Positions 2,514 through 60,514 are shown, counted from the first letter of the stretch. The stretch is 64,000 nucleotides of DNA from Candidatus Kapaibacterium sp. (GCA_035632315.1 DASQGZ010000048.1:64740-128739), one strand, 5' to 3'. The notes: a model not told the origin generated them from the sequence alone. Numbers and translations are program-made.

Positions 2514-3476
2514 TTATGCCGTCACAGACATTTCCATTGCGAACGGAGCGGCCGCTTCGACGCCAAGTTTTTCGAGCAGCGATATATCCTCATTGAACGA
2601 TGGGTTCGGCGTCGTCAGCAATGTATCGCCGGTAAAAATAGAATTCGCACCCGCAAGAAATGCAAGTGTTTGAGCTTCTTTCGATAGTGACAACCTCCCG
2701 GCGCTCAGCCGCACACGAGACTTCGGCATCAAGATTCTGGCACAGGCAATGACGCGGATAAAATCGAATGGATCGAGCGGCGGAGCATCCGCTAGCGGTG
2801 TTCCGTCAACAGGAACGAGTGCATTGATCGGAACACTTTCCGGTTGAGGGTCGAAATTCGCAAGCGTATGTAAAAAAGCGACCCTGTCATCATCTGTTTC
2901 TCCCATTCCGAGAATGCCGCCGCAGCAAACAGAGATACCGCTCTCCTGAACGTTGCGCAGCGTATCGAGACGGTCCTGATATTCTCTGGTATGGATGATA
3001 GACCCATAAAAACTTTCTGAAGTATCGAGATTATGATTATATGCCGTCAGCCCTGCATCTTTCAAACGTTCGGCTTGTGGTTTGGTCACCATACCGAGTG
3101 TCGTACAAACTTCAAGACCGAGGCTTCGCACACCGCGCACCATTTGGAGCACGTTGTCGAAATCGCGACCGTCACGAACTTCGCGCCACGCAGCGCCCAT
3201 ACAAAAACGAGTTGCGCCGGCATCTTTCGCTCGTCTTGCAGTGCTCACGACTTCATCGACATCCAGCAGTTTCTCTGCTTCAACACCCGTATGATACCGA
3301 GCCGCTTGCGGACAGTATGCGCAATCCTCCGGACAGCCACCTGTTTTTACCGAGAGGAGCGTGCATAGTTGTATATCATCATATTGGTGATATGTTCGGT
3401 GTATAGCGCTCGCCTCTGACACTAATTTCAAAAAAGGGGTCTCGTAAAGCGAGCGAACTTCTTGTAATGAGATCAT
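2514..3476 (-). CDS. bioB: Biotin synthase (radical SAM)
   Basis: 320 aa with the CPEDCAYCPQ radical-SAM cysteine motif and overall BioB similarity. Confidence 0.9.
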   Translation of the reverse strand: MISLQEVRSLYETPFLKLVSEASAIHRTYHQYDDIQLCTLLSVKTGGCPEDCAYCPQAARYHTGVEAEKLLDVDEVVSTARRAKDAGATRFCMGAAWREVRDGRDFDNVLQMVRGVRSLGLEVCTTLGMVTKPQAERLKDAGLTAYNHNLDTSESFYGSIIHTREYQDRLDTLRNVQESGISVCCGGILGMGETDDDRVAFLHTLANFDPQPESVPINALVPVDGTPLADAPPLDPFDFIRVIACARILMPKSRVRLSAGRLSLSKEAQTLAFLAGANSIFTGDTLLTTPNPSFNEDISLLEKLGVEAAAPFAMEMSVTA

Positions 3477-3551
3477 ATAAAAACAGCGATTAATTTTCTT
3501 TTTAATACGATATCGGCTCTTTAAACATAAGTTATCTGTAATCGTTTTATA

Positions 3552-3914
3552 TCATTCTACCTCGACTTCAACCATCCCTTCGTCAATTCTGACCGGATAA
3601 ATTGGAATGCGCGGGCCGGTTCCGGGCCATGTGAGTGCTCCCGTCCGAAGCGAGAACACCCATGAATGCTCCGGGCATGTGATTTCATCATCAAAGACAT
3701 AACCATGTTCCATCGAAGTCCCTTGATGCGGGCAGATCGCTCCGCAGGAAAAGAGTTCAGACCCAGAGCGCATCACAAGTATCTGTTTGCCCGCGATGCT
3801 GCGGCATACGATCGACCCATTTGCCAATTCTTCATTTTTGACGATCTTCGTCCACATTCGTATATTTGTACTATTATAAACTGCAAAAATACCGCTCTCT
3901 AAGAGAAAGGACAC
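3552..3914 (-). CDS. Small Rieske [2Fe-2S] domain protein (NirD or Rieske-ferredoxin like)
   Basis: 120 aa with CPHQG...(16 aa)...CPEHSW, which is the CXH-X16-CXXH Rieske motif. Confidence 0.75.
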   Translation of the reverse strand: MSFLLESGIFAVYNSTNIRMWTKIVKNEELANGSIVCRSIAGKQILVMRSGSELFSCGAICPHQGTSMEHGYVFDDEITCPEHSWVFSLRTGALTWPGTGPRIPIYPVRIDEGMVEVEVE

Positions 3915-3942
3915 AATAGCTGCATCATTTGAGAACGGTATT

Positions 3943-5256
3943 GTGGATTTATATACTCATTCATCAATCAATCCCACTATGAAAAAAATCTTAAAGATCG
4001 TTGGTATCATTGTCGGTGCCATTGTTCTGCTTGTTGCAGGATTTATTGGTTTTCTCAAGGTAGCCGGGATGCCAAGTTTTAGCAATGTGAAGCGGCCCGA
4101 CGTTCATGTCGAGGTTACGCCAGTACGTGTCGAGCGGGGTCGCAAGATCATGGGTATGCTCTGTTATAATTGCCACTATAATGCAGCAACGAATAAGCTG
4201 AGCGGACATTTTCTCAATGAATCGCCGCCGGTCTTTGGGAAGATCTATTCCCACAATATCACGAGCGATAAAACGAACGGTATCGGAGGCTGGACAGACG
4301 GAGAAATTTTATACTTCCTGAGAACAGGTATTCATAAAAATAACGAATACGTCCCGCCATATATGCCGAAGTTTCCGCACATGGCAGAAGAAGATATTCA
4401 ATCGCTCGTAGCATATTTACGTTCGAATGACTCTCTTGTCGCACCGAGTACAGCACCCGATACTGCAGAAGAGCCCTCGTTGCTTGCTCTGTTTCTCGGA
4501 CGATTTGTTTTTAAGCCGTATTCGTATCCGACAGAAAATATTCCGTTACCTCCTGCCGGCAACTCCGTTGCTGTCGGGAAATATTGGGCGGCCAGTGTAC
4601 TTGATTGTTATCAGTGCCACAGTGCCGATTTTAAAACGAACGATGGTTTGAATCCGGAAAAATCAGTCGGATTTTTCGGCGGCGGCAACGAACTAACCGA
4701 TCCGATAGGTAAACCTGTCTTTTCAAGAAATATCACACCTGATATGGAACACGGTATCGGCAAGTGGACGCCGGGTATGTTCTTGCGTGCGCTCCGAGAC
4801 GGTCTTCGTCCGGATAATACGGCACTTCGTTACCCAATGGCACGCTTCCCGGAGCTCAGCGATTCTGAGATCGTTGCGATCTATGATTATTTACGAACCG
4901 TCCCGTCGCTTTCGACACCAAACAAGCAAAGTGCGGATTACAAATACGCAAATGCGAACCCCTCTGACGGTGAAAAAGTCTATTATAAATATGCGTGCTA
5001 TGCCTGTCACGGGCAGAACGGAATTGGGATGTGTGACCTGACGCATGCGTGTGATAAATATCATAGCGATGAAGAACTGACTAATTGGATCAAGAATCCG
5101 TCGAAGATCATCCCCGGCACGAAGATGCCGACGTGGGAAGGCACGATCCGCGAAGAAGAATTCGCGCCGCTGGTGCAATATGTCCGCCAACTCGGACATG
5201 AGACCCAAGCGAAGTTAAAAGAGAACAGCCAAAAAACAACGGCTTCTCTTAAGTAA
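3943..5256 (+). CDS. Membrane-anchored tri-heme c-type cytochrome
   Basis: 437 aa with an N-terminal TM helix and three CXXCH motifs (CYNCH, CYQCH, CYACH). Confidence 0.8.
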   Translation: MDLYTHSSINPTMKKILKIVGIIVGAIVLLVAGFIGFLKVAGMPSFSNVKRPDVHVEVTPVRVERGRKIMGMLCYNCHYNAATNKLSGHFLNESPPVFGKIYSHNITSDKTNGIGGWTDGEILYFLRTGIHKNNEYVPPYMPKFPHMAEEDIQSLVAYLRSNDSLVAPSTAPDTAEEPSLLALFLGRFVFKPYSYPTENIPLPPAGNSVAVGKYWAASVLDCYQCHSADFKTNDGLNPEKSVGFFGGGNELTDPIGKPVFSRNITPDMEHGIGKWTPGMFLRALRDGLRPDNTALRYPMARFPELSDSEIVAIYDYLRTVPSLSTPNKQSADYKYANANPSDGEKVYYKYACYACHGQNGIGMCDLTHACDKYHSDEELTNWIKNPSKIIPGTKMPTWEGTIREEEFAPLVQYVRQLGHETQAKLKENSQKTTASLK

Positions 5257-5279
5257 TCGCCATTATAACTTATGATGCC

Positions 5280-5314
5280 AATGGCGGGCCCGGAAAGACC
5301 CGCCGTTTTTTGTT
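5280..5314 (+). terminator. Rho-independent terminator after the cytochrome gene
   Basis: GGCGGGCCCGGAAAGACCCGCC hairpin followed by GTTTTTT. Confidence 0.5.
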
Positions 5315-5386
5315 GCACGTTTTTTTCCCATTCGTTGTATTATCTTTTTGTGTTGGGCGACGCTCTCCGCCGTCCGATAATCTGTT

Positions 5387-7270
5387 GTGTTGTCACGGAA
5401 ACGTTCTTGTTCTATGGATACGATCAATCTGGTAAAACGAATTGCGTGCTTTGTTGTTGTCGCAATTGTCTCGCTGCATTCTGCTCTTCATGCCGAAACA
5501 ACGTATAACCCTGGTAATTATGTCGTCAAAGATATTTGGGTCGACCCGTCGAATGGAGCTGATTCATACGACGGCTCAACCAGGGCAAAGGCCGTCAGAG
5601 ACATTAATACTGCCTGGGGCTTGATCCAGCAATTACAAATAACGACGACAGGCTATCGCATCATGCTCGTTGCCGGAATGTATTCTGCCGATTCGACACC
5701 AAACTTTCAATCTCTCGCGGCAACATTCAAATACCCGGTCATTATTCAAGCCGCGGACGGTAACGGCACTGCTTCGCTGCCGAGGATCACGGTGATCGGT
5801 TGCAGTTACCTGTATTTTATCGGCGTTAACATCCGAACTGTTTTTGGCGGTGATGCTTTCGGCGCGACAACAAGCGACCACTTGCTTCTGAGTAATTGCG
5901 GGATCGACGGCCTTAACAGTGATACTACAGGTTCCGAATCGCAAAATGCTGTCAGTTTCACTACCTGCCAGTATTGCTATATTGAAGATTGTACCATCAA
6001 GCATTCAACAAATGCGCTTGCATATTTCAGCGCGTGTCAATACGGACATATTCTACACTCAACTCTCGACTCGACTGCCGGAACAGGTATTTATGCCGGA
6101 AGCGGCTCAGCATATTTATACTTTGAACGCAATATGCTCCGTAATGCTGCCGGCAGAGGCTTTCTACTCGGCGGCACAAGTTACCTCGATTATGATTTTA
6201 TTACGCCCTGGCTGCATTACGATACCTACGATATCAAGATCGACAACAACATCATTGCCAACACACAAAAAGAAGCATTTTTGGTCAATGGCAGTTACGA
6301 TGCGCTCATTGCGTATAATACTTTTTATAAGACCGGCGATTCCGCTGCGACAATGTTTATCGTCGGGTTAGGAAACCGGACGTGCAATTACGATCAATTG
6401 AAATGTAAAACATTTCTCGACAGCGGCGCCTGGGGTACGGTACATATTTACCAGACTGATGACGATGCGGCATGGATACCGAATAAACACCTCTATATAT
6501 ATAATAATATCTTTTATAATCCTACCGGATCGCAAACGTCTTACGGCGAGCTTTCCGTCTGGGGTTCTCGTAAAGCGTTGAGCCATGCGTCGTGCCCCAA
6601 GCCAGCGTATGCTGACGACGATATGGAGTTCAAAGGCAATGTCATTTTCAATGGCGTGCTTTCAAAACCGTTGGGGCTTTCCGATACTTCCGGGTGCCAG
6701 GATTCGAATCTTACGTGCAATAAAAATCTGATCATTACGGAAAATTCTTTGAATATCCAAGAGCCTGATCTCGTCGGTGCGAGTAATGGCGACTTGCATC
6801 CGAAACCGGGCAGTTTTTTATTCAGTACAAAATTATTCGCGATCCCTAACTTTATCTGGACCGATCTGCCCGGTCGGCCGATAGAACCACAAGGCGATCT
6901 CTCAAATGCGATCACCATAGATTTCGACGGTAAGATCCGCAGTTCCGGCTCCGACGCTCCCGGTAGTTTCAAAAGCTCGACGGCATCGGTTCACCAAACA
7001 TCGCCTGCCGATTTTTCTGTCGGCGATCCTGTCCCGAATCCGGCATCCGATCACGCGGACATTTCGTTTTTGCTCACCGGCCGCGCTCTCGTTCGGGCCA
7101 GTGTTCACGATCTGCTCGGCAGAGAGATCGAACTCATTGCGAACGAATCATTCGAGCAAGGTATGTATCATCTGCCAATTTCAATAGCGAACCTTGCAAC
7201 TGGCGCATATTATATTTGCGTATCTGCCGAAGGGACAACGATCACTAAGGCTTTTTCCGTGATTCGATAA
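5387..7270 (+). CDS. T9SS-secreted right-handed parallel beta-helix (pectin-lyase fold) protein. The likely true start is the Met at 5414.
   Basis: Signal peptide MDTINLVKRIACFVVVAIVSLHSALHA and PbH1-like repeats. The C-terminal ~80 aa resemble a T9SS sorting domain (FPNPASDH...YICVSAEG...KAFSVIR). Confidence 0.7.
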   Translation: MLSRKRSCSMDTINLVKRIACFVVVAIVSLHSALHAETTYNPGNYVVKDIWVDPSNGADSYDGSTRAKAVRDINTAWGLIQQLQITTTGYRIMLVAGMYSADSTPNFQSLAATFKYPVIIQAADGNGTASLPRITVIGCSYLYFIGVNIRTVFGGDAFGATTSDHLLLSNCGIDGLNSDTTGSESQNAVSFTTCQYCYIEDCTIKHSTNALAYFSACQYGHILHSTLDSTAGTGIYAGSGSAYLYFERNMLRNAAGRGFLLGGTSYLDYDFITPWLHYDTYDIKIDNNIIANTQKEAFLVNGSYDALIAYNTFYKTGDSAATMFIVGLGNRTCNYDQLKCKTFLDSGAWGTVHIYQTDDDAAWIPNKHLYIYNNIFYNPTGSQTSYGELSVWGSRKALSHASCPKPAYADDDMEFKGNVIFNGVLSKPLGLSDTSGCQDSNLTCNKNLIITENSLNIQEPDLVGASNGDLHPKPGSFLFSTKLFAIPNFIWTDLPGRPIEPQGDLSNAITIDFDGKIRSSGSDAPGSFKSSTASVHQTSPADFSVGDPVPNPASDHADISFLLTGRALVRASVHDLLGREIELIANESFEQGMYHLPISIANLATGAYYICVSAEGTTITKAFSVIR

Positions 7271-12144: not shown

Positions 12145-13167
12145 TCAGTAGAACAGGTCGGTAAATTTTCCGTTACGAACAGTAACGGGCGAACGGGATG
12201 AACCATCTTCTATATTGAACATAAATGTCCCTGAAATGCGGCGGCGAATCGTGTCGAAATCAGAAATGACAACCGCACTGGGGACGAGTGTCCGATTTGT
12301 ATCAGCAAACGCAAGCTCATTTTTCCCGCTCGATGAATCGAATCCATATTTACTGTAGATCGCGAAACCGGGCTCAATGTCAAATGTGCCGGGATGAATC
12401 GGTTTCCGAATGAGCATTGAAAAAGATTCATATCCGTCGGTCTTTGATTCGTCTGTCCGCATAACGATCGCAAAGTGTTCGCTGCTGCGGCCTTGACCAT
12501 TAATGTTTCCGAACCCATCGAATAATTTTGCCGACGAAAATCCGGATGTCCAGTTGGTACCGGCGATATCGGCCGTCATCACTTGCCCGCCTGCTTCACC
12601 TAATCTGAAATACAGATCGGTGAATGAGCCCTCCATCAAATGCTGAGTCTTTGTCAGAGGTGTATATATCATACATGTAAATATTCCGGAAATGCGTTTC
12701 GCGAGCGTATCTACTTTTGTAATTTGGAGTGATCCGCTGAGCGTTTTCTGAACCAGAATATTCGTCAGGCTGTCATTAAAACGGTAGCTGATCTGTGCGA
12801 CCCCGGCAAACGCACTGTCGGATATCGGGTACACCCCTGTCTTGACATCGACATCCAGCAGCATCAACGAAAGATAAACCGAGTCGGCATTCAGATCGAA
12901 ATTCAGAACGGAGTGAAATCCCCTGTCGAGATAATAACTATACTCATCTTTCATCGCCTGTCCTTGATAATATTCGGCATAATCGAAATTATCATTGAAG
13001 GGAAATTGCACGCCATCAATAAATATCGCGGAAAGCCCTGCCTGCGCAAGAGGATGATTATAGATAACCGTCTGATCTCCCGGGGCAGACACAGATGTAT
13101 CTTTGCACCCAAGAACACCATAGATGAGTGCCGTAATTACCGAAAATATTGCGACCGTTCTTTTCAT
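12145..13167 (-). CDS. Hypothetical lipoprotein
   Basis: Lipobox signal (VLGC). No recognisable catalytic motifs. Confidence 0.45.
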   Translation of the reverse strand: MKRTVAIFSVITALIYGVLGCKDTSVSAPGDQTVIYNHPLAQAGLSAIFIDGVQFPFNDNFDYAEYYQGQAMKDEYSYYLDRGFHSVLNFDLNADSVYLSLMLLDVDVKTGVYPISDSAFAGVAQISYRFNDSLTNILVQKTLSGSLQITKVDTLAKRISGIFTCMIYTPLTKTQHLMEGSFTDLYFRLGEAGGQVMTADIAGTNWTSGFSSAKLFDGFGNINGQGRSSEHFAIVMRTDESKTDGYESFSMLIRKPIHPGTFDIEPGFAIYSKYGFDSSSGKNELAFADTNRTLVPSAVVISDFDTIRRRISGTFMFNIEDGSSRSPVTVRNGKFTDLFY

Positions 13168-16628: not shown

Positions 16629-16750
16629 ATCGTTGTCATTGCGAGCGAAACGAAGTGAAGCGAAGCAATCTAAAATATTTCAAATTATGTAACGCTTGAA
16701 TCATTTTTAGATTGCTTCGGTCGCTGCGCGACTCTCGCAATGACATCGTT
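16629..16750. repeat. Palindromic intergenic repeat, copy A. Two inverted units, each with GTCATTGCGAG ... CGAAGCAATCTAAAA around a variable core.
   Basis: Left arm 16635-16675 and right arm 16705-16745. Cores differ between the arms. The loop is ~30 nt. Confidence 0.6.
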
Positions 16751-21913: not shown

Positions 21914-22008
21914 TAAAAAAAACCGTTAACGCAGGGAGCTATAGCGGCTTCAATATATACCACCGGTGAAGACTTACTTTCCCAAGCCTGACTGGCTAAG
22001 TATTATCA
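21914..22008 (-). repeat. Decayed copy 1 of the 5S rRNA 3'-end plus terminator unit
   Basis: An A-run, a degenerate hairpin and ~45 nt matching the 5S 3' end (GACTTACTTTCCCAAGCCTGACTGGCTAAGTATTATCA versus 31124-31160). The stop codon of gene 21996-22595 lies inside it. Confidence 0.55.
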
Positions 22009-23832: not shown

Positions 23833-23912
23833 AAAGATACGAAGAAAGCCAAAAAACCCGCTAGCACGAAGCGATAGCGCGCTAACATAGAAAAAACAAG
23901 AACTATGGGCAG

Positions 23913-24679: not shown

Positions 24680-24745
24680 AAAAAAAACTCGAATGCAAGA
24701 GCGATAGCGGGGTAACATACAACCCCCTGACGATGACCTACTTTC
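24680..24745 (-). repeat. Decayed copy 3 of the 5S 3'-end plus terminator unit. It is a candidate distal boundary of the island.
   Basis: AAAAAAAACTCGAATGCAAGAGCGATAGCGGGGTAACATACAACCCCCTGACGATGACCTACTTTC is ~85% identical to 31068-31135 (terminator, flank and the last 25 nt of 5S). Confidence 0.55.
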
Positions 24746-25037
24746 AGATTCTTCGCGGAGTTTTCACTGAGCAGATGTGAATGTGCTCAGAATGACACCG
24801 CTGGTTGAGCTTTATAGATTAATATCACAAAAGTATATAAAAATTTGATAAATTACACTATTTATCAATATTTTATCAATAATACTTGCATTTTTGATTT
24901 TTATTTCGTATATTTGCAGCCAGAGATTAGCCAACATATCTGAAGCCGGCATCCTGCCCGCTCATCATTCAGCGTTTCCGGCACCTCCTTCATTCAAGTA
25001 CTGCGAAGTACATTTATTGCCAAGTACTTTTATCGTT

Positions 25038-28903: not shown

Positions 28904-28976
28904 TAATATATGTTGCTCCGAAGTGACGACATATAACTTATTGTTCACTATTTATCACATTTAACAATTTACACCT

Positions 28977-29147
28977 ATGAAAACCCAATACATGAATAAC
29001 GTCCCGTTTCTTCCGGGAGAATTAACCATTGTGACATCCGATCATGCCGAGCTGGCGATGCAGCATTCGGCGCGGCTTGCCGATTCGTTTCGCAGGGCGC
29101 GGCTGAACGGGAATAATAGGGGTGAAAACACTGTTTTATCAATGTGA
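28977..29147 (+). pseudogene. 5' fragment (49 codons plus RBS) of a paralog of gene 29696-30400. It forms direct repeat 1 (28975-29109).
   Basis: ~95% nucleotide identity to 29694-29828. The reading frame is open for 49 codons and then diverges and stops. Confidence 0.6.
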
Positions 29148-29650: not shown

Positions 29651-29680
29651 CGCCTTGAAAAGGCGAGACAGATTTTTTTT
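29651..29680 (+). terminator. Hairpin CGCCTT-gaaa-AGGCG followed by a T8 run
   Basis: Seen directly in the sequence. Confidence 0.45.
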
Positions 29681-29695
29681 AATCTATCAACATCT

Positions 29696-30400
29696 ATGAA
29701 AACCCAATATATGAATAACGTCCCGTTTCTTCCGGGAGAATTAACCATTGTGACATCCGATCATGCCGAGGCGACGATGCAGCACTCGGCGCGGCTTGCC
29801 GATTCGTTTCGCAAGGCGCGGCTGAACGTCCTTGTCATTAATTGCGGGATGAACGAGCGCCGCTTCCGCCAGCATTATCACGATACGTACGGCTCCGGTA
29901 TCGATACAACACCGACGGTGATCCTGAAGACATCGCTTTTAGGAAATGTCGCCGGCGACCGCGAAGGGATCGATCAGATCGTGCGCGAAGCGAAGATCGG
30001 CGTCGTGATCCTTGCCGGCTGGGAATTTGCATCGGGAACGCGCCGCCGCCGCAACAAATTATTCTTTTACCTTCGCGAGCTCATGGCCGAACGCGATATT
30101 GCCGTCATCGTGTATTCGCAAACGATGAATAATCCTGTTGCCGGAAAAATGGGCGCACTCGGAAAGCTTGCCGCCGCGGCAATGGAAGTGGTGAAGATCG
30201 ATTCGTCGAAAGTGCTGGAAGCGGTCGTGAAAAAGCCGCCCGTGATCGCGTGGGAATCGGCAGATGAGATGCATACCATTGAACAGGGGGTACAGCGATT
30301 AGTCAGGAATATCAATGAGTTAGCAGACCATCAGTGCACATCGGATGAAGATGCACGGCAAATAGAGAATGACGATGGAGACTACGGCGTGGCGGTGTGA
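29696..30400 (+). CDS. Hypothetical protein. The beta-strand pattern suggests a RecA-like fold without a Walker A motif.
   Basis: 234 aa. Its first 49 codons are duplicated upstream at 28977. Confidence 0.35.
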   Translation: MKTQYMNNVPFLPGELTIVTSDHAEATMQHSARLADSFRKARLNVLVINCGMNERRFRQHYHDTYGSGIDTTPTVILKTSLLGNVAGDREGIDQIVREAKIGVVILAGWEFASGTRRRRNKLFFYLRELMAERDIAVIVYSQTMNNPVAGKMGALGKLAAAAMEVVKIDSSKVLEAVVKKPPVIAWESADEMHTIEQGVQRLVRNINELADHQCTSDEDARQIENDDGDYGVAV

Positions 30401-31111: not shown

Positions 31112-31228
31112 CCCCTGGCGACGACCTACTTTCCCAAGCCTGACTGGCTAAGTATCATCGGCTTACAAGGGCTTAACTGCTCTGTTCGGAATGGGAAGAG
31201 GTGTAGCCCCTTGGATATAGTCGCCAAA
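31112..31228 (-). rRNA. rrf: 5S ribosomal RNA
   Basis: Minus-strand sequence CCATTCCGAACAGAG...GTTAAGC...GGGAAAGTAGGTCGTCGCCAGGGG has the canonical 5S helices. Confidence 0.85.
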
Positions 31229-31439
31229 AGGAAACTTTATGAGTGGTCAGTGATCAGTGGCCGGTGGTCAGCTGATCAAAGACAGCGAACGGTGTGAATT
31301 GCGAATGATACGAGTATCGAACTATTGAATCTACATTCAATAAGTCTAAATTGTGACGAACACTATACCAAACACTATAGTAATGCGGTAGTAAGGTGTT
31401 TTGCGCGAGAATGTCGCACAAACTATCTCTACTACGAAA

Positions 31440-34425
<2,986 letters not shown>

Positions 34426-34985: not shown

Positions 34986-37061
34986 ATGGCACGCTTTCTA
35001 TTCATAATACTTTTTTCTTTCACCATCACCAGTCCGTGTTACGCCCAATGGTTACAATCTAGCGGACCAGCAGGTTCAGGAGTTTCAGACTTTTCTATAT
35101 TGGGTAATAAATTATTTTCAGCCTCCTTTGATGGAATATATGCTTCTACCGATTACGGAAAGACATGGGAATACAGTAATTTTACACAGCCAGTCAGTTC
35201 ACTTTGTGTAATCGGAAACAAGATCCTCGCAATGAACAACTATCAGGATCATGGACTCTATCAATCAGATGATTCAGGCATTAGTTGGCATCAATTATTC
35301 CCCAATACATGGGTTGGACAAGCACGAACAGATAATACTCGCTTATTCGCCCTTACGAGCGACGGAATATTCATGTCAGAGGACAGTGGGAAAATTTGGA
35401 TTCAAATCGACTCTCAGATCAATGGTAATGTGTTCCGGGGGCAATTAGACCTCGTAGGCAATGGCGTCTTGTACAGGGATGACTATGGAATTACTGTTTA
35501 CAGAACTACTGACCTCGGGAGAACCTGGCAACGCTTTGACAGTACGGGGTTTAATATTTCTCAGAAGATTGTCGTCGTTGATGATACTACTGCTTTTGCA
35601 GAAATAAATACAAACTCTGGTGCCGCTTTGATTCAATCGAAAGACGGAATTCACTGGAGTATCGTTGATTCGACAAACATACTCAATATTTCCAGTTTAA
35701 ATACAGGTATCAGAATCGGTAATTCAATCATGTTGGGTGGTTGGAATGGTTTGCTTATCTCAATGAACGATGGAAAAAGTTGGAGTCATTATACGAATTT
35801 AGGAGAACAACAAATTGATGTTGCGGTCCTCAAAGTCTCGGGTGAAATGGTTTTCGCAGGGTGTAGAAAAGGGGTTTATATCAGTAACGATACCGGACTA
35901 ACATGGACAGCAATGCAACAAGACATTGGGGATAGGTCATTGACTGCGATCGGATCGAGTAGTAGTCTTATCCTCGCCGGTGGAGTAAATGGAAGGCTCT
36001 TTGAAACAACTGATAATGGACTTCATTGGAACACAGTATCCTCTTTTGACTCTGTCCGTCGAATCAATGAGATCCAGTTTGTCGGTACAAATGCATTCGT
36101 ATGCTCGACATCAGGCTTTTATAAGTCAATTGACAATGGAGATAACTGGTCACTCCTTACAGGTTCAATACCTGATTCTAACGTGACCTGTTTCTTATTC
36201 GCGGGTAGCAGAATGTACATCGGCACATGGAATGGGATATTCCGTTCAACTGATTTCGGCAAATCATGGCAAGAAGTAAATAATGGCCTTGCAAATTTGT
36301 ATGCTCTATCACTATGCTCGAATGATCAATATCTTTTTGCCGGAACGGCAAACGGCATTTTCCGTAGCGAAGACTTCGGTGATCATTGGGTTCGGAAAAG
36401 TGACGGACTTAGTAGTGTTGATGTTCAAAATTTCAGTACCGACCCACCGTACATATTTGCCGGCACAACGAATACAATATGCCGTTCGAGTGATAATGGA
36501 GAGCATTGGCAATCTCTGGATTCCCCATCTGTCGATATAATGGCAATGAAAACCATCAATAATGTTATCATAGCATCAACAGGTTTGCCAGTTGAAGTAT
36601 ATGCATCTACCAATCATGGGGATAGCTGGAAAATTATTTCCGACGGAATAGATAAAGATTGGATTCAAGGCACATATCCGAAAATTACCTCTTTCGCGAA
36701 CGACGGTCAATTCATTTATGCTGCAAGTGACGGGCAGGGGGTGTGGAAAAGGAAAATTGATGAAAAAATAACAGCAGATGTCCGACAACCGATAAGTATA
36801 CCAAGCTCAACAATCTCATCTTTTCCCAATCCATGTAATGATGAAAGTACTATTCGATTTACTCTTTCAAATCCCTCAATTGCATCGGTGGTACTAACCG
36901 ATATCCTTGGCAAACAGGTTACTCTTGTACGGAACACATCCTATAATGCGGGCACTTATGATCTCCCAATTAATTTGACCGGATATTCCAGCGGAATCTA
37001 TTCCTGCAAAGTTATTACCCGAGATGGTATGCAAGAAATTAAGATTGTAAAAGCAAAATAG
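34986..37061 (+). CDS. T9SS-secreted BNR/Asp-box repeat (beta-propeller) protein
   Basis: Signal peptide, at least 12 SxDxGxTW repeats and a C-terminal T9SS sorting domain. Confidence 0.75.
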   Translation: MARFLFIILFSFTITSPCYAQWLQSSGPAGSGVSDFSILGNKLFSASFDGIYASTDYGKTWEYSNFTQPVSSLCVIGNKILAMNNYQDHGLYQSDDSGISWHQLFPNTWVGQARTDNTRLFALTSDGIFMSEDSGKIWIQIDSQINGNVFRGQLDLVGNGVLYRDDYGITVYRTTDLGRTWQRFDSTGFNISQKIVVVDDTTAFAEINTNSGAALIQSKDGIHWSIVDSTNILNISSLNTGIRIGNSIMLGGWNGLLISMNDGKSWSHYTNLGEQQIDVAVLKVSGEMVFAGCRKGVYISNDTGLTWTAMQQDIGDRSLTAIGSSSSLILAGGVNGRLFETTDNGLHWNTVSSFDSVRRINEIQFVGTNAFVCSTSGFYKSIDNGDNWSLLTGSIPDSNVTCFLFAGSRMYIGTWNGIFRSTDFGKSWQEVNNGLANLYALSLCSNDQYLFAGTANGIFRSEDFGDHWVRKSDGLSSVDVQNFSTDPPYIFAGTTNTICRSSDNGEHWQSLDSPSVDIMAMKTINNVIIASTGLPVEVYASTNHGDSWKIISDGIDKDWIQGTYPKITSFANDGQFIYAASDGQGVWKRKIDEKITADVRQPISIPSSTISSFPNPCNDESTIRFTLSNPSIASVVLTDILGKQVTLVRNTSYNAGTYDLPINLTGYSSGIYSCKVITRDGMQEIKIVKAK

Positions 37062-40627: not shown

Positions 40628-41608
40628 ATGAACACGATCTTTATTGTCATTCCGAACGGAATGGAGCAAAGTGAGGAATCTGTCGATAAAAAAGTCCTTA
40701 TTTTTGTAAACTTTACATTCATCAAATTAATGTCCGTACAAGCAACTCAAGACTCGCTCCCAAATTTCGATACCCTCTGGAATTACGGTAAGCCTGCCGA
40801 GACTCGAGAGAAATTTCTCGAAATCCTTCCTCGCGCCGAAACGTCGAATGATACAAATTATCTTGCTCAATTGCTGACCCAGATCGCTCGTACCTATTCG
40901 CTGGAAAATAGATTTACTGACGCTCATTCGATTCTCGATCGAGCAGAAAAAATGCTGACAGCCGATCTGAGGCTCACTCGTGTCAGGTATTTGCTTGAAC
41001 GAGGCAGGAGCTTCAACTCTGCCGGCGAGGTTTCACGCTCGCTCCCGCTCTTCAAAGAAGCACATCATCTCGCAGTCGAGATCGGCGAGATGCGCTACGC
41101 CATTGATGCCATTCACATGATCGCTATTGCAGAATCAGATCCGAAGAAGCAAGTCGAATGGAATCTCAAAGGTATCACAATGACCGAGCCTGATGAAAAA
41201 CTTCATGGCTGGCTTTGGGCATTATACAATAATATCGGAGAAAGTTATCTCAAGCTTCATGATTACGACAATGCATGTAAATATTTCCACTTACTTTCCG
41301 AGTACCAAATAAAGAAAAACGGCGAAGCCGATATGTTCACGTTGAAAGACGAAGCGAAGTCATTGCGGTTCGCGGGACATCCTGAAAGATCGCTTGCGAT
41401 CATCCAGCAGGTCTTCGAAAAACTTTCTGCCGAGAAAAAAGACGATGGATATATCCGACAAGAACTTGCTGAAGCATTATTTGCACTTGGAAAGATAGAT
41501 GAAGCAAAACCACATTTCATTAAAGCATCCGAACTCCTTTCGAAAGATGACTGGTTTATAAAGAACTGTCCGGATGAATTGAAACGGCTCGATGCAATGT
41601 CAAAGTGA
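40628..41608 (+). CDS. TPR-like helical repeat protein. An alternative start is at 40730.
   Basis: All-alpha repeat pattern with no catalytic motif. Confidence 0.45.
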   Translation: MNTIFIVIPNGMEQSEESVDKKVLIFVNFTFIKLMSVQATQDSLPNFDTLWNYGKPAETREKFLEILPRAETSNDTNYLAQLLTQIARTYSLENRFTDAHSILDRAEKMLTADLRLTRVRYLLERGRSFNSAGEVSRSLPLFKEAHHLAVEIGEMRYAIDAIHMIAIAESDPKKQVEWNLKGITMTEPDEKLHGWLWALYNNIGESYLKLHDYDNACKYFHLLSEYQIKKNGEADMFTLKDEAKSLRFAGHPERSLAIIQQVFEKLSAEKKDDGYIRQELAEALFALGKIDEAKPHFIKASELLSKDDWFIKNCPDELKRLDAMSK

Positions 41609-44238: not shown

Positions 44239-44778
44239 ATGTCAGAGAATGCTGCCCTCGCGAAAGCGCGCTCGCGGTTGTGGAAACCGATGAGCCCGAA
44301 GATGAAAGATGTGCCGGTGTGGGCATTATTGATCGGTTCGTTCGGGTTTGCCGGGCTGTCGCCTGTTTCAAGCGGCACTGTCGGCAGCGCTGTAGCGGCG
44401 GCATTGTATTATTTTATTACTCCGCTGCAGTCGCTTTGGGTTCTTGCTGTCTGCTGTATCGTTGTGCTCGTTATCGGCACTGTCGCCGCAGATGTGATCG
44501 CATTGAAACTCGGCGAGCACGATCCGTCGGTCGTTGTGATCGACGAAGTACTCGGGCAATGGATCGCGTGCTTTACATGGGTGTATAAAGGCGATCTGAC
44601 GTACGTCATTATCGCATTTATCGCATTTCGCGCATTCGACATTTTCAAAACATACCCGGCATCGATCTTCGAAAAAAGAGAAGGCGGCTCTGCCGTGATG
44701 CTTGACGATGCTGTTGCGGGAGTGTATGCGAATATCATCGCCCATCTTACGATGTTTGCGATCTCGGCGTTACGATAA
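44239..44778 (+). CDS. pgpA: Phosphatidylglycerophosphatase A
   Basis: PgpA-like membrane pattern. It is in an operon with pgsA. Confidence 0.7.
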   Translation: MSENAALAKARSRLWKPMSPKMKDVPVWALLIGSFGFAGLSPVSSGTVGSAVAAALYYFITPLQSLWVLAVCCIVVLVIGTVAADVIALKLGEHDPSVVVIDEVLGQWIACFTWVYKGDLTYVIIAFIAFRAFDIFKTYPASIFEKREGGSAVMLDDAVAGVYANIIAHLTMFAISALR

Positions 44779-52259: not shown

Positions 52260-54167
52260 GTGGCTTGTGTCTTGGCAAACCCGGAGGTTATCACTGGAGT
52301 GAGGTATCGCCGTTCGATCTGTCTCTTTTTTCTCATCACCGCCATCCCGGCTCTGCATCGGGATATAGCGGCGCAATGGAAGCTTGTCTCGACGAATTTA
52401 TATTCGTCGTTCGATATGCTCGATACGCGGGTCGGGCTCGCAGGCCAGTTCGGCGTCGGGCTGCCGACGCTCTGCCGCTACGATAACGGCGCGATCACCG
52501 GCATTTTCACAGCGAGCGGGCTTATCAGCAATATCGTCATTCTCGATACGAACGTTGCGTTCTTCTCCGTCTTCGGCGACGGCATCTACGAAGCGTCGCT
52601 TCATTGGTCGCAATTCACGAAAGTTCACGATGCCGATACCAGCACGGTTCTCACGGTACTCGGAAGGACGGTCGTCGTTAACATCCACCGCTCACTTGCC
52701 GTCAGTTCCGATGGCGGGAACACATTCGGATTTTCAAAAGGCATTCTTGCGCGCGATTCGGTGTGCGCTGTCGGCATTTATGATTCGAGCACGATGATCG
52801 CCGTTGCCGATTCCGATCTGTATCGTTCAGTCGATGGCGGCGCACACTGGAGCCTTGTGCTCGATACGATCCGGCGCACGCATTCAATATATATAGACCG
52901 AGCACACAAATATATTTATGTTGGTGGCGTAAACCTCATGCGTTCGTCCGACGGCGGCGCAAACTGGGTAGAACTCAGAAGCATTTTCTTCGGATCGCTT
53001 TCCGGACCTGTTGTTGGCGTGAACGATTGCACGGGCGTACTCTATCTCGGACCGGATAATGTGTATCGCGGCGAACTGCTTCGCTCTGTCAATCTCGGCA
53101 AATTTTTTCAGAGCGTCGGGCAGGCGAATTTTGCACAGACTCATTTAAATAAAGGCATCGCGCTCGATCGCGGCTCGACATTTTTCTGGCTCGATTCGGG
53201 CGGTGTGATGTCGATGACGACAGTCGGCGTGGATGGCACGATCACGGACAGCGTTGCAGATCATGTCATCGTCGGTATTGATACGGTGCTGCATAATTCG
53301 CTCTGCGCGAACACACCGGCATCGACCTACACATTCAGAGTGCGATATGACCAGTGTACAGGGATCGTTCTCGATTCACTCCTGCAAGTATCTGCAAATC
53401 CGGCATTCAAAGTACAATTTTTACCGAAATTTCTCGGCGATACGGAAATCAAATTTAGTTTTTCGTTCCGCGCACGCGCCGAAGGACCCGATAGTGTGCG
53501 GTATCGTCTGAAATTCCATTCGCCTATTACGGGAAATTACGAACAGATTTTTTTCACCATTCCGGGCGTTGGCGATGCAAGCAGCGCGGTTGTTTCATTT
53601 TCTGTCCCCGAAGTCGATTTTGGGAAGATCGGCATCGACTCCGCACGGCGGAAGATATTTTCGATCTTGAACACCGGATGTGATACACTTATAATTACGT
53701 CAGTCACATCCTCGAATATTGTCTCGTTCCAGATCGCCGCAAAACAATATCCGATCGTTCTCTTGCCCGGGCAGAGCGTGTCGCTAACAGTAACTTTTTT
53801 GCCAAGCGCCGAAGGAGATTATCTTGAATCGGCAGTTATTGCAACGAACATCGGCACACGGTATCTGACACTACGCGGGACCGGAACAATTGGCGGCGGC
53901 GGAGATACATCGTTAGTTGTTATGCAACGCGAATTAGTCACGGTATCTATTTTTCCGAACCCTGCGCGAGATATATTATATCTGGAAGTGTCAGAAACAA
54001 TACCGATCTCGCAGATCGAGATCATTGACGAACTTGGGCGTGTGATCCGGCCGGCTGTTATTAATGAAAGCGGCGAACGGATCGCTCTTGATATTCATAC
54101 TCTTCCTGCCGGATCGTATCTGCTCAGCGGGGGCGATAGTATTCGAAAGAGGTTCATCAAATTTTGA
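52260..54167 (+). CDS. T9SS-secreted BNR/Asp-box repeat protein
   Basis: SxDGGxxW/F repeats and a C-terminal T9SS sorting domain. Confidence 0.65.
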   Translation: MACVLANPEVITGVRYRRSICLFFLITAIPALHRDIAAQWKLVSTNLYSSFDMLDTRVGLAGQFGVGLPTLCRYDNGAITGIFTASGLISNIVILDTNVAFFSVFGDGIYEASLHWSQFTKVHDADTSTVLTVLGRTVVVNIHRSLAVSSDGGNTFGFSKGILARDSVCAVGIYDSSTMIAVADSDLYRSVDGGAHWSLVLDTIRRTHSIYIDRAHKYIYVGGVNLMRSSDGGANWVELRSIFFGSLSGPVVGVNDCTGVLYLGPDNVYRGELLRSVNLGKFFQSVGQANFAQTHLNKGIALDRGSTFFWLDSGGVMSMTTVGVDGTITDSVADHVIVGIDTVLHNSLCANTPASTYTFRVRYDQCTGIVLDSLLQVSANPAFKVQFLPKFLGDTEIKFSFSFRARAEGPDSVRYRLKFHSPITGNYEQIFFTIPGVGDASSAVVSFSVPEVDFGKIGIDSARRKIFSILNTGCDTLIITSVTSSNIVSFQIAAKQYPIVLLPGQSVSLTVTFLPSAEGDYLESAVIATNIGTRYLTLRGTGTIGGGGDTSLVVMQRELVTVSIFPNPARDILYLEVSETIPISQIEIIDELGRVIRPAVINESGERIALDIHTLPAGSYLLSGGDSIRKRFIKF

Positions 54168-57100
54168 AGTTTCGAATATTCATACTGGCTGTTTTTCTCT
54201 GTACGATTCTCACGGAGTCGCGGCTTGCTGCGCAGCCGCATTGGACACTTGTGTTCAATGCTCCCGCATGCGGAAGCTCGGCTTATTTTATCAATCCGAA
54301 TGAAGGCTGCATCGGCATCGGAAATTATCCCGGAGGTTTCCCCGCGCAAATTTATTATACCCGTAACGGCGGAGCTACATGGACACGCTCGGTGATGCCG
54401 AATATGACAATGCTCGGGCAGGTCACCGATATTTTCTTCAGAGACCGGCTCAATGGGTGGGCATGCGTTCGCGAAGCGATCGAACACGGATGGAGCGGAC
54501 TCTATCGGACGTTCGACGGCGGCGAGACGTGGCAGCAATGGTACCAATCTATTTTTCCGGTCTCTGTCCGCGAAACATCTCGCGGCGTCTATCTTTCCGA
54601 CCGCACTGCTTCCGCCGGGGGCGTTGAATTCTCGAACGACGGAGGAAATACGTTTAAATATATTGTCATCAGCAGCGGCGCGCTCGGTCTTGATTTTCTC
54701 GACGATAATATCGGCATCTTCTCAACCGAAGGAAATACGACCGAGCCATATCTTGTGACCTCTGACGGAGGAACGACGTGGACGCCCTTCCCGCTGCGTT
54801 TAGAATCGTGGTCAACATTTGCCGACCCGGCAACAAAAAAATTATTCTTCTGCAGCGAGCGCGATGTTCCCTATCCCGGCACACAATCGACGATCGGAAT
54901 GACGAAGGATCTTGGGATCACGTATAATCAAAACCTCGCGCTCGATACAACAGATGTATTTTCGGGCGGCATCAACGGAAATAAAGGATGCCGTTCGGCC
55001 ATCTATGTTCAGCAGGAAGTAAAAGGCAGAAATTTTTCCGGCGGCCTTATCCGCTCGACCGACGGCGGCACGACGTGGGTGAATGTCGGCGGACCATACA
55101 ATTATAACGACAAGCGTTTTGCCGTTACGGGCAGAGGAGCCGTTGTGTATGCATTCGACCGTACGGGCGGCGTCTGGAAAACATCAGACGGCGGCGACGG
55201 CAAACTCAGCTCGTCGGTGCTTGGCTCGGTCGCGTTCTCGACGTTGCCATCGTCGAACAGCATTTCATCGAAACTCTGCGACAGCGCGAGCGAAGTTATT
55301 CATCTTGCATACTCCGATTGCGATTCGGTCTCGCTAGAAAAAATAAATTTTATCAATGACGGTCTCGGTGAGCTTTCGACGAGTCATCAGACAGTATTTT
55401 TTGGACACAGCGGTTCATCCAGCGACTCGGCGATCATCACATTCAAACCAATGCAGATCGCAAGTAAAACCGAACGCATCAGGCTCACGATCCGTCAAGG
55501 AGACGGATATTTGCAGGATACGATCATCACGCTCGACCTGCAGGGGCTTGCGGCAAATGATGTGCCGTCTATCGCTGAAGTGCGCGGCGACTCGCTCGGG
55601 TTCGGAACACGAAGCGTTTGCGGCGACGATTCGGTTCGCGTGATCACCATCACAAATGCCGGCTGCGCACCGATGAATGTTATTTCGCTTTCTGTTTCAG
55701 GTAGCGCATTTTCATTGCTCTCAAGTTTCTCACCGATCGCACTTGGTCCCGGGATATCAAGGCAATATCTTATTCGCTTCAATCCGAATTTGATCGGAAC
55801 CCAGTTCGGCGCGCTGATTCTGCAAACAGGAAATGCCCGGGATTCTGTCGTGCTGAGTGGCATCGGCAGACCCGGCAGCCGGGGATATAAACTCTCGCAG
55901 CCGAACATCACATCAACGATGTGCGATTCTGCCGAAGGGACGCTTGTCCTGCGAAATATTTCTTGTACACAAGTGACGATCAGTTCGATCGGCATCGCTC
56001 CGCCGTTCCGTTTCGATCCTGTCGCAACACCCGTCACGATGGCAACCGATTCAGCGATCGTGCTGAAGTATCACTTCGTGCCGAATACGCCCGGCATGTA
56101 TAATGCGGCTGTCACGATCAATTCGCTCAACGTGAATGATGTGTTCGATACGTCCCTCACACTCGTCGGTGTTGCAACCGAAGGGACAGCGAACATTTCA
56201 TATTCGCCGCCGGCATTAAATTTCGATTCTGTTTCTGTTTGTTCGCTGAGGGAATTTGATATATCGATCGCCAGTACCGGGTGCGATACGCTTGCGATTC
56301 CGCTGGATACTTTAACAACCGATACTACTGAGTTTCATATCGTCTCCGATGTCAGTTCACGAGCCGTTCTTCGCGGCGACACAGTTCATATCAAAGTGCG
56401 TTTTCATCCGCCCGGCGTTGGGTCGTTCTCGAGTGTGCTGCATATCCAAACAAATACCGGTCCGATCAATATTCCGATGCAGGGCATTGGCTCGAGCGAT
56501 CCGGGTGTGCTCTCGCTTTCAGGTGTTACGCTCGGGAATATTCTTACGTGTAAGGATACAACATTCTCGTTCACCATCGAGAACACGACTTGCGATTCGC
56601 TTGTGCTTGATTCAATCCGTGTCACCGGCATCGGAAGAAGCGATTACGTAACGACCTACACTGCACCTACGCCGCTTGGCCTCGGAGCAAAAAATACATT
56701 CACAACTCATTTCATCCCGCAAGCAGGCGGCAACCGAAATGCGATACTTCACTGCTACCTGCACAAAACGGACGGGACACTCGTCGAAAAAAATACTCCA
56801 TTGAACGGTGTTGGCGTCGCGCCGGTACCGATCCGCCTGTCATTGCCAAGTATTACCTACTCGACTCTTGCAGGCGCGCCGATTCAAATTCCGGTTACGG
56901 TGCTCGATACAAGTTATATCGATGTTGGGACGACGACGTTCAGCTTGTCACTGAACACCGACCTGCTCACGCCGACAAATTTTGATCTCACCGGAAGCAT
57001 ATTTGGTGGCGCTTCGGTGATCGGTTTCAACGTGGTAAAGACCGGCGTGACGATCTCGCTGTCAGTTCCGCCAGGCGAACGATTTCATTCCGGTTTGCTC

Positions 57101-57571
57101 GGAACGCTCGATTGCATTCCATTCGTAAGCGATACGATCACCACAGATATTATCGAAAGCACATTTACAGCATTTGATAAGGATACTTCCGCAAACTGCT
57201 TGCCGACCGCACTCATCACGCCGCCGCAAACGATCACTTCGTTCACGCTCGCGCCGGCGTGCGGCATTTCGACACTGACAAAATATCTGCGCTATGGCCC
57301 AAGCGGAATTTTTATTCAAAGTATTTCACCAAACCCTGCCCATTCGGAAATAATATTCTCTGCGTTACTTGATCCGATCCCTGACGGCGACCTTGCCATT
57401 GATATTCTCGACGATGCCGGCGCACTCGTGCAAAGCGAACATATCCCGCACTCAGAGCTTCGCTCGCCGTTCGTTCATACGATGAACATCCTCGGCGCCA
57501 GCGGCACAAGAACACTGCGATTACAAAGCGGCGCGTCGGAAACGCTCGGCCGGTTCGTGTTAGTGAAATAA
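54164..57571 (+). CDS. Giant T9SS-secreted protein: N-terminal BNR beta-propeller, multiple Ig-like domains and a C-terminal sorting domain
   Basis: 1135 aa with Asp-box repeats (TRNGGATW, FDGGETW, SDGGTTW). It overlaps the upstream gene by 4 nt. Confidence 0.7.
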   Translation: MKFRIFILAVFLCTILTESRLAAQPHWTLVFNAPACGSSAYFINPNEGCIGIGNYPGGFPAQIYYTRNGGATWTRSVMPNMTMLGQVTDIFFRDRLNGWACVREAIEHGWSGLYRTFDGGETWQQWYQSIFPVSVRETSRGVYLSDRTASAGGVEFSNDGGNTFKYIVISSGALGLDFLDDNIGIFSTEGNTTEPYLVTSDGGTTWTPFPLRLESWSTFADPATKKLFFCSERDVPYPGTQSTIGMTKDLGITYNQNLALDTTDVFSGGINGNKGCRSAIYVQQEVKGRNFSGGLIRSTDGGTTWVNVGGPYNYNDKRFAVTGRGAVVYAFDRTGGVWKTSDGGDGKLSSSVLGSVAFSTLPSSNSISSKLCDSASEVIHLAYSDCDSVSLEKINFINDGLGELSTSHQTVFFGHSGSSSDSAIITFKPMQIASKTERIRLTIRQGDGYLQDTIITLDLQGLAANDVPSIAEVRGDSLGFGTRSVCGDDSVRVITITNAGCAPMNVISLSVSGSAFSLLSSFSPIALGPGISRQYLIRFNPNLIGTQFGALILQTGNARDSVVLSGIGRPGSRGYKLSQPNITSTMCDSAEGTLVLRNISCTQVTISSIGIAPPFRFDPVATPVTMATDSAIVLKYHFVPNTPGMYNAAVTINSLNVNDVFDTSLTLVGVATEGTANISYSPPALNFDSVSVCSLREFDISIASTGCDTLAIPLDTLTTDTTEFHIVSDVSSRAVLRGDTVHIKVRFHPPGVGSFSSVLHIQTNTGPINIPMQGIGSSDPGVLSLSGVTLGNILTCKDTTFSFTIENTTCDSLVLDSIRVTGIGRSDYVTTYTAPTPLGLGAKNTFTTHFIPQAGGNRNAILHCYLHKTDGTLVEKNTPLNGVGVAPVPIRLSLPSITYSTLAGAPIQIPVTVLDTSYIDVGTTTFSLSLNTDLLTPTNFDLTGSIFGGASVIGFNVVKTGVTISLSVPPGERFHSGLLGTLDCIPFVSDTITTDIIESTFTAFDKDTSANCLPTALITPPQTITSFTLAPACGISTLTKYLRYGPSGIFIQSISPNPAHSEIIFSALLDPIPDGDLAIDILDDAGALVQSEHIPHSELRSPFVHTMNILGASGTRTLRLQSGASETLGRFVLVK

Positions 57572-59079: not shown

Positions 59080-59109
59080 TGTCATTGCGAGCGCAGCGAA
59101 GTAATGACA
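59080..59109. repeat. Palindromic repeat family, short copy B (TGTCATTGCGAGCGCAGCGAAGTAATGACA)
   Basis: Shares the GTCATTGCGAGCG...CGAAG terminus with copies A and C. It abuts the dxr stop codon. Confidence 0.5.
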
Positions 59110-60304: not shown

Positions 60305-60400
60305 CGGAGCAAATGCAACAATTTGAAAATTCTCGCGTTAGTTGAACGTTGACAAACAACAACAAGACTGAAACAGAGCCGGGGAATATTATCATTCAAT

Positions 60401-60514
60401 AGATGTCATTGCGAGCATGGCGTACGCCATGCGAAGCAATCTAATATTTCGAAACAGTCTCCTCGCTTCAAGATATTAGATTGCTTCGTCGCTTCGCTCC
60501 TCGCAATGACATCT
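60401..60514. repeat. Palindromic intergenic repeat, copy C (AGATGTCATTGCGAG-core-CGAAGCAATCTAATAT, inverted twice)
   Basis: Left arm 60401-60447 and right arm 60473-60514. The cores differ. The left-arm core CATGGCGTACGCCATG is itself a palindrome. Confidence 0.6.

Follow-up and report, generated by a model that had tools for sequence, protein, structure and literature searches.

The window, by which we mean the whole 64-kb stretch of DNA analysed, holds seven units of a palindromic repeat: two inverted doublets, one single unit and two units of sister subfamilies (Table 1). The doublets, at 16635-16744 and 60405-60510, are composed of units of the form GTCATTGCGAG-core-CGAAGCAATC. The first of these motifs, GTCATTGCGAG, has just five copies in the window (16635+, 16744-, 59081+, 60405+ and 60510-), against a chance expectation of about 0.03 for an 11-mer in 128 kb, and CGAAGCAATC closes four of these five units, 13-16 nt downstream. 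A glyoxalase/VOC gene and a GyrI-like gene flank doublet 1, and doublet 2 lies in the divergent spacer between dxr and an ORF of 679 aa (60506-62545); the single unit begins 2 nt past the dxr stop codon, upstream of rseP.

A sequence-only reading of the same DNA had described three intergenic copies of inverted units with hypervariable cores, next to GyrI-like/VOC genes and to rseP, dxr and a TonB-dependent receptor gene. The three loci were recovered as described, all of them intergenic, and the four quoted cores were exact; however, only two of the loci are doublets, the third being a single unit that does not end in CGAAGCAATCTAA, and two more units, those of the sister subfamilies, add to the count of three. 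The hypervariability of the cores is likewise not random, as detailed below. Of the neighbouring genes, the GyrI-like/VOC and rseP/dxr assignments stood, but the supposed receptor, the 679-aa ORF, has no Pfam match at E<=0.01. A relaxed scan of the window for degenerate units returned noise only (15 matches versus 8 in the reversed control).

Table 1. Coordinates of the repeat units and associated features in the window.
Feature	Coordinates	Strand	Description
Unit 1a, ATTGC type (left arm, doublet 1)	16635..16670	+	GTC tag, ATTGC/GCAAT stem, GAG/CGAA loop, 3' C; core CGAAACGAAGTGAAG, a run of CGAAG-like pentamers
Doublet 1 spacer	16671..16709	.	Inner ends TAAAAT.../...ATTTTTA lengthen the inverted repeat; variable centre
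Unit 1b (right arm, doublet 1)	16710..16744	-	Core AGTCGCGCAGCGAC, GTCGC/GCGAC apical hairpin
Single ATTCT/AGAAT-subfamily unit	24747..24796	-	GTCATTCTGAG...GCGAAGAATC; in divergent intergenic region; abuts a stretch resembling the 3' end of a 5S rRNA gene
Single ATTCC/GGAAT-subfamily unit	40646..40680	+	GTCATTCCGAAC...GTGAGGAATC; 3' of an OmpA-like gene and its terminator
Single 'double-foot' unit	59081..59108	+	GTCATTGCGAG-CGCAG-CGAAGTAATGAC; 8-bp stem with one G.T pair
Unit 3a (left arm, doublet 2)	60405..60441	+	Core CATGGCGTACGCCATG, a perfect palindrome
Doublet 2 spacer	60442..60478	.	Inner ends TAATAT.../...ATATTA
Unit 3b (right arm, doublet 2)	60479..60510	-	Core GAGCGAAGCGA, second GAG...CGA module
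ATG within terminal CTCGCAATGAC of doublet 2	60506..60508	+	Apparent start of the 679-aa ORF

One copy was also said to supply the apparent start codon of the adjoining gene. This copy is doublet 2, and after a stop at 60350 the ATG within its terminal CTCGCAATGAC is the sole canonical start in frame with the 679-aa ORF. The N-terminus of the encoded protein, MTSLLVVSTVASAQ, is a weak signal peptide which begins inside the repeat, and orthologues of the ORF gave a faint Porin_10 signal only. In genomes other than this one, genuine genes have been called too long, reaching into the ATG or TGA of the element, and peptides such as ...LRRFAPRND... and ...VIARSEATKQS... arise from the element itself, in agreement with the spurious small ORFs that had been anticipated.

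The plan of a unit, read from its 5' end, comprises an unpaired (T)GTC tag, a basal stem of 5 bp whose first pair is A-T, a purine loop of GAG opposite CGA(A), an apex, and a C. The GAG/CGA(A) loop probably forms tandem sheared G.A pairs, and we refer to the class as 'GA-type'. The apex is free in both sequence and length (3-40 nt) and mostly self-complementary; the cores are for the most part apical hairpins, as in CATGGCGTACGCCATG and AGTCGCGCAGCGAC, or (CGAAG)n runs, and the core of unit 3b, GAGCGAAGCGA, belongs to the most frequent core class outside the window. Each arm folds alone as a hairpin, in which ATTGC pairs with GCAAT and GAG lies opposite CGAA. The long hairpins that had been predicted were also found, as the doublets fold end-to-end into structures of 106-110 nt with z-scores of -6.5 and -9.4. 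The cores of the two arms of a doublet do not match each other; the functional module is the unit and not the doublet, and the arm cores need not match. Of 362 related units, 336 carry the GTC tag, and TGTC opens all seven units of the window; the 3' C is present in 350 of the 362 and in six of the seven, the exception being the unit at 59081, which may be a degenerate copy because a G replaces the C after its 5-bp palindrome.

Since the variable apex makes a fixed alignment unreliable, covariation was assessed by regular-expression tests with reversed-sequence controls in place of a covariance model. A pattern that imposes no pairing on the basal stem (GTC N5 GAGC N1-9 GCGA N5 C) gave 73 matches, and none in the reversed-sequence control; all five basal pairs were formed in 69 of the 73, the first pair was A-T in 67, and pairs 2-5 alternated among T-A, C-G and G-C in a compensatory manner. 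Compensatory changes likewise relate the stems of the subfamilies, ATTGC/GCAAT, ATTCT/AGAAT, ATTCC/GGAAT, ATCCC/GGGAT, ATCCT/AGGAT, ACCCT/AGGGT and ATGCT/AGCAT. Because the basal stem covaries, the hairpin structure is under selection. Pairing extends into the cores: 210 ATTGC units from viral contigs contained 144 distinct cores, and when nested pairs were counted from the outside in, 35% of the cores from these units had at least three Watson-Crick or G.T pairs, compared with 3.7% after shuffling (65% versus 12% when G.A pairs were allowed). Chimeric or nested arms were also observed, in L136 (about 1790-1850), L159 and L161; one example joins a GTCATTCCGAG 5' foot to a CGAAGCAATC 3' end around a core of about 37 nt that recurs in several Kapaibacterium loci.

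Copies are by no means limited to one duplicated segment. The exact doublet pattern, CGAAGCAATCTAA-N15-45-TTAGATTGCTTCG, was found in 54 stretches from 15 GTDB species genomes, on many contigs, including 10-14 exact doublets on separate contigs in each of three Candidatus Kapaibacterium MAGs; exact doublets also occur in MAGs labelled Ignavibacteriae, Chlorobiaceae, Ferruginibacter/Bacteroidota, Bdellovibrionales, Desulfobacterales, Gammaproteobacteria, Patescibacteria and Melainabacteria. Among 53 doublets selected by their inner 26 nt only, 43 have an exact outer foot at both ends. The unit pattern GTCATTGCGAG-N8-24-CGAAGCAATC matched at least 120 viral-contig stretches with at least 157 units, in which nearly all cores differ and many are palindromic. 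Units are present on plasmids of cultured Methylosinus, Methylocystis, Novosphingobium, Legionella, Halomonas and Nostocales, and Calothrix carries a doublet. Being multi-copy, dispersed and shared across phyla, the family is REP/MITE-like in kind, as first suggested. Single units are far more frequent than doublets, and both orientations relative to flanking genes are seen (23 versus 33 in co-directional contexts). In L035 and L038, inverted units about 600 nt apart enclose no gene. A literature search with the literal sequence of the element returned unrelated primers only; at the gathering threshold, Rfam recognised the 23S and 5S rRNA alone in the window, and a permissive search of the copies (E<=10) gave sub-threshold, generic miRNA-hairpin matches and no family.

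One phage-like viral contig, L011 (IMGVR_UViG_3300010328_000003), carries units of three subfamilies at 3300-7200 and 12700-13050, where they sit in most of the short gaps that separate co-directional structural genes, directly upstream of the Shine-Dalgarno sequence; ORF callers stretch the genes of this contig into the ATG of the unit.

Comparison of related loci revealed both gain and loss. In the dxr loci of L179 and L180 (78% and 71% protein identity), synteny is kept and both the single unit and doublet 2 are absent; the gene spacings of a closer relative (89% dxr identity) fit the presence of doublet 2 and the absence of the single unit. L168 carries a doublet within a 170-nt spacer (1090-1260) between two genes, one of them PgpA-like by synteny, which in the window overlap (TAATG, at 44740-44760), and the site orthologous to the ATTCC unit of the window holds ATTGC doublets instead in L137 and L130. 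Orthologous copies in L156 and L174, at 92% nucleotide identity, have identical cores; over short periods, therefore, the cores are not hypermutable. Across 58 doublets, the flanking sequence contained no consistent target-site duplication; all that it showed was a weak continuation of the inverted repeat (YGTCAT...ATGACR).

Chenal et al. (Nat Commun 2025) described SsnA of Neisseria meningitidis, a 94-aa GIY-YIG protein which binds the NTS hairpin (CGTCATTCCCGCGMAVGCGGGAATCYRG); binding is to ssDNA only, in a single orientation, and not to RNA, and the cut lies upstream of the GTC tag, at a distance of a few nucleotides, cleavage being governed by the three nucleotides 5' of the palindrome and binding most critically by the C after it, with a reported need for stem sequence besides structure (PMC11893778). 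Ssn-related motifs (SRM) were found near 71% of Ssn homologues, the NTS-ssnA-NTS arrangement is IS-like, and the system restricts transformation in Neisseria (PMC11893778). Like the SRM, including the NTS/dRS3 of Neisseria, the units described here have an unpaired GTC 5' of the palindrome, a stem that starts with A-T and a C after the palindrome; both are hairpins of 20-50 nt with many intergenic copies, which bracket a single-domain GIY-YIG gene of about 94 aa (SRM-ssn-SRM). In contrast to the NTS, with its 8-bp GC-rich stem and 3-4-nt loop, the window class has 5 continuous bp, the GAG/CGA(A) loop and a free apex, whereas the N. meningitidis enzyme is reported to need the stem sequence of its target; unlike SRM, moreover, the window class occurs mostly as doublets with conserved inner ends TAAAAT, and its host is a member of the Kapabacteria. 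The published SRM pattern, HGTCWYN(0-2)YYVSBRHN(0-5)WNVSBRGN(0-2)RNCYNB, matched none of the seven window units and none of 298 gene-flanking units, since ATTGC and the GAG loop prevent a match at its YY and S positions; the GA-type class is undetected by this pattern, and surveys using it would miss the class.

Di Nocera et al. (BMC Genomics 2013) had earlier defined CGTC/TGTC-tagged REPs in four families, CGTC-1 to -4, from Proteobacteria, Chlorobi, Bacteroidetes, Spirochaetes and Thermotogae; these elements, mostly arranged as head-to-head dimers, open their stems with A-T and carry a short tail on the 3' side, and no dedicated transposase, nor any flanked by them, was found (PMC3733652). 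The window class resembles these REPs in its TGTC tag (seven of seven window units), in a stem opening A-T, T-A, in an unpaired 3' tail from the C, in the predominance of head-to-head dimers, often heterodimers, and in the lack of a linked transposase. It is nonetheless absent from the four described families (PMC3733652), which have an unbroken stem of 8-9 bp and a loop of 4-5 nt, unlike the internal G.A module and hypervariable apex seen here. The window class hence falls outside the operational definitions of SRM and of CGTC-1 to -4, yet it shares their functional hallmarks: the GTC tag, the A-T start, the 3' C, the dimers and the gene linkage.

The gene linkage is strong. In the 1.56 Mb of loci analysed there are only two small GIY-YIG genes (PF01541), and both are bracketed by units, that of L137 by an inverted ATTCC unit on each side and that of L171 by an ATTGC doublet on each side. 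The association was then measured in 80 metagenome loci picked by protein similarity alone, in which the gene product is 94-100 aa. A unit lay within 150 nt of the GIY-YIG gene upstream in 64 of the 80 loci, downstream in 61 and on both sides in 55; together the loci held 298 units, versus 0 in the reversed control, and the density of units was 7.7 per kb beside the gene versus 0.20 per kb more than 400 nt away, a 38-fold difference. The commonest bracket, found in 28 of the 55, is inverted (+,-), with the GTC feet outward. The association of gene and unit seen here independently reproduces the published Ssn/SRM linkage.

These modules share their ends with the doublets. The motif GTCATTGCGA(G/C)... 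lies upstream of the gene in L171, L271, L272, L273/4, L275/6 and L277-284, and ...CTCGCAATGAC lies downstream of it in most of them; for the clade nearest the L171 protein, this amounts to five independent loci with the upstream motif and four with the downstream one. The inner ends of the L271 module, GCAATCTAA and TTAGATTGC, are also the inner ends of the window doublets.

A 94-aa protein of N. gonorrhoeae which is flanked by canonical NTS served as a stand-in reference for N. meningitidis SsnA. Protein P0121 is 45% identical to it (E=9e-26) and the L171 protein 39%; judged by this homology, the protein linked to GA-type units is a member of the Ssn family, and matches to solved UPF0213 proteins were only marginal. 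No ssn gene is present within the 64-kb window; one was found in the related Kapaibacterium MAGs L137 and L285, from which we infer that the source MAG would encode a cognate Ssn. Homologues of the family (P0121-P0240) are 60-70% identical across distant phyla, their hosts including MAGs labelled Chloroflexi, Magasanikbacteria (CPR), Betaproteobacteria and Nitrosopumilaceae (archaeal), which suggests very recent horizontal spread, or else mis-binning. On viral contigs ssn is scarce, with only two good homologues found, even though units are common there. Several annotated GIY-YIG proteins end in ...SSLRSE* because their ORF runs into the downstream unit; with this, the repeat class explains very common spurious ORFs (the ...RFAPRND..., ...VIARSEATKQS... 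and ...SSLRSE* peptides) as well as mis-called gene starts and ends in many phyla and on viral contigs. An Ssn-family gene with GA-type hairpins was also noted in a defence island of Planktothrix agardhii plasmid p1 (L262, 695-979), where its neighbours are an MmeI-type restriction-modification gene and the DISARM gene drmA.

The linkage to a GIY-YIG gene bears directly on whether these might be classical REPs or REPINs mobilised by a RAYT, a Y1 HUH tyrosine transposase of the IS200 superfamily. The build resembles that of REPINs, with two inverted hairpins and a spacer in intergenic DNA and no target duplication (Bertels & Rainey 2011; Quentin et al. 2018, PMC6006769); Y1 subclasses 2.4 and 2.6 in Bacteroidetes and Cyanobacteria include 'double-foot' REPs; and, by analogy, repeats that bracket a single-copy partner gene would resemble a REPtron, with recognition likewise on ssDNA (PMC6006769). 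The tag, however, is TGTC (GTCA) and not GT[AG]G, a regex-level motif scan of about 1.4 Mb of loci found no HuH...Y..NP ORF, no transposase flanked by CGTC REPs was found by Di Nocera et al. (PMC3733652), and the genes bracketed by units encode GIY-YIG proteins instead of a Y1 HUH transposase. REPIN/RAYT systems are, moreover, mostly vertical, whereas here the partner gene and the repeats are common to several phyla at high identity. We therefore regard mobilisation by a RAYT as very improbable. An ordinary TIR-type MITE, derived from an insertion sequence with a DDE transposase, fares worse still and is in our view scarcely credible: the terminal inverted repeats of at least 11 bp, the size of 106-110 bp, the many copies, their presence or absence among relatives and an ATCGTT at both flanks of copy 1 would suit such an element, but ATCGTT is not repeated in other doublets and the 58 doublets have no consistent target-site duplication, single units far outnumber doublets, the arms carry independent hairpin cores, and no DDE transposase was found bracketed by units, the 'transposase' neighbour in Calothrix being only an IS1595 zinc-ribbon fragment 320 nt away.

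A primary role in RNA, whether in stabilising or processing mRNA, in terminating transcription or in regulating translation, would account for stable hairpins between co-directional genes, often past stop codons or just upstream of Shine-Dalgarno sequences; the covariation speaks for a structure under selection, and the REPs of other bacteria have such secondary roles (PMC3733652). Against it stand the use of both orientations relative to flanking genes, the lack of a U-tract at the window copies, the lack of any Rfam family even at E<=10, and the tight linkage to ssn; furthermore, the two conserved features, an unpaired GTC and a 3' C, are those on which, according to published work, a DNA enzyme that does not bind RNA depends (PMC11893778). 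We hold such a primary role to be unlikely. Readings as an integron attC, a LicT RAT antiterminator, a K-turn or a terminator were set aside, given the lack of an array and of a GTT core, the two orientations, a bulge of 1 nt rather than 3, and the missing U-tract.

It is likely, in our judgement, that the repeats constitute a divergent GA-type class of Ssn-related motifs (SRM/NTS), that is, of CGTC/TGTC-tagged REP hairpins, and the hairpins are probably recognised by the adjoining tiny GIY-YIG ssDNA nuclease, Ssn. On this reading they are an outlying branch of a system that was described only lately, and no novel type of element is involved. The outer feet of the doublets (GTCATTGCGAG / CTCGCAATGAC) and their inner ends (GCAATCTAA / TTAGATTGC) match those of full modules, and for this reason the doublets appear to be REPIN/MITE-like derivatives of SRM-ssn-SRM modules that lack ssn; in terms of sequence, this identity of ends supports the idea in the literature of IS-like elements with miniature derivatives.

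A cognate Ssn would recognise the base of the GA-type hairpin and ignore its apex. Units would act where DNA is single-stranded, as in replication, repair or incoming DNA, and would there mark sites of Ssn cleavage. Of the two arms of a doublet, a given strand would present just one in the cleavable orientation, so that the cuts would lie on different strands, immediately beyond the element. The doublets would spread in trans or by recombination as non-autonomous derivatives, and the long transcript hairpins, the perturbed gene starts and the spurious ORFs would be by-products. A more far-reaching version, which we put forward only tentatively and consider rather doubtful, is that the doublets are active non-autonomous mobile elements, internal-deletion derivatives of SRM-ssn-SRM which Ssn copies via an ssDNA intermediate. 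If so, they would parallel the REPIN/RAYT system with a GIY-YIG enzyme in the place of the RAYT, and would use a transposition chemistry so far unrecognised in prokaryotes; the GA-type hairpin, with its 5-bp stem, tandem G.A pairs and free apex, would amount to a new, minimal and modular recognition code for site-specific ssDNA nucleases.

The Ssn/SRM system of 2025 is extended by these data to the Kapabacteria and Bacteroidota. For technology, the arrangement of GTC, 5 bp, a G.A module and C around a free apex would be an attractive programmable substrate for ssDNA cutting, if Ssn cuts it.

Several other features of the window were noted. The 23S and 5S rRNA genes lie at 31113-34416 on the minus strand, with a 691-aa ORF (34986-37061) directly upstream of the 23S gene; the window contains no 16S rRNA gene and no tRNA gene, and the arrangement looks like an unlinked rRNA operon. 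Two stretches, 21936-22007 and 24700-24746, are similar to the 3'-terminal part of the 5S rRNA gene and to the DNA that directly follows it (76% identity over 72 nt at 21936), and an A-run followed by AGCGATAGCG..TAACATACAA recurs at 23870, 24674, 28773, 31063 and 35886; Rfam returned nothing at E<=0.1 for the 5S-like stretches or the A-run sites. A 150-nt direct repeat at 28960-29109 and 29679-29828 is 92% identical between its copies, which are 719 nt apart. Finally, 54164-57571 and its neighbours encode very large secreted proteins (1135 aa and partners), with faint BNR/Sortilin-type matches in the window copy and a faint Por_Secre_tail signal (type IX secretion) only in the orthologues and neighbouring genes of L179 and L180; large secreted proteins with these signals fit a host of the Bacteroidota-Chlorobi group.
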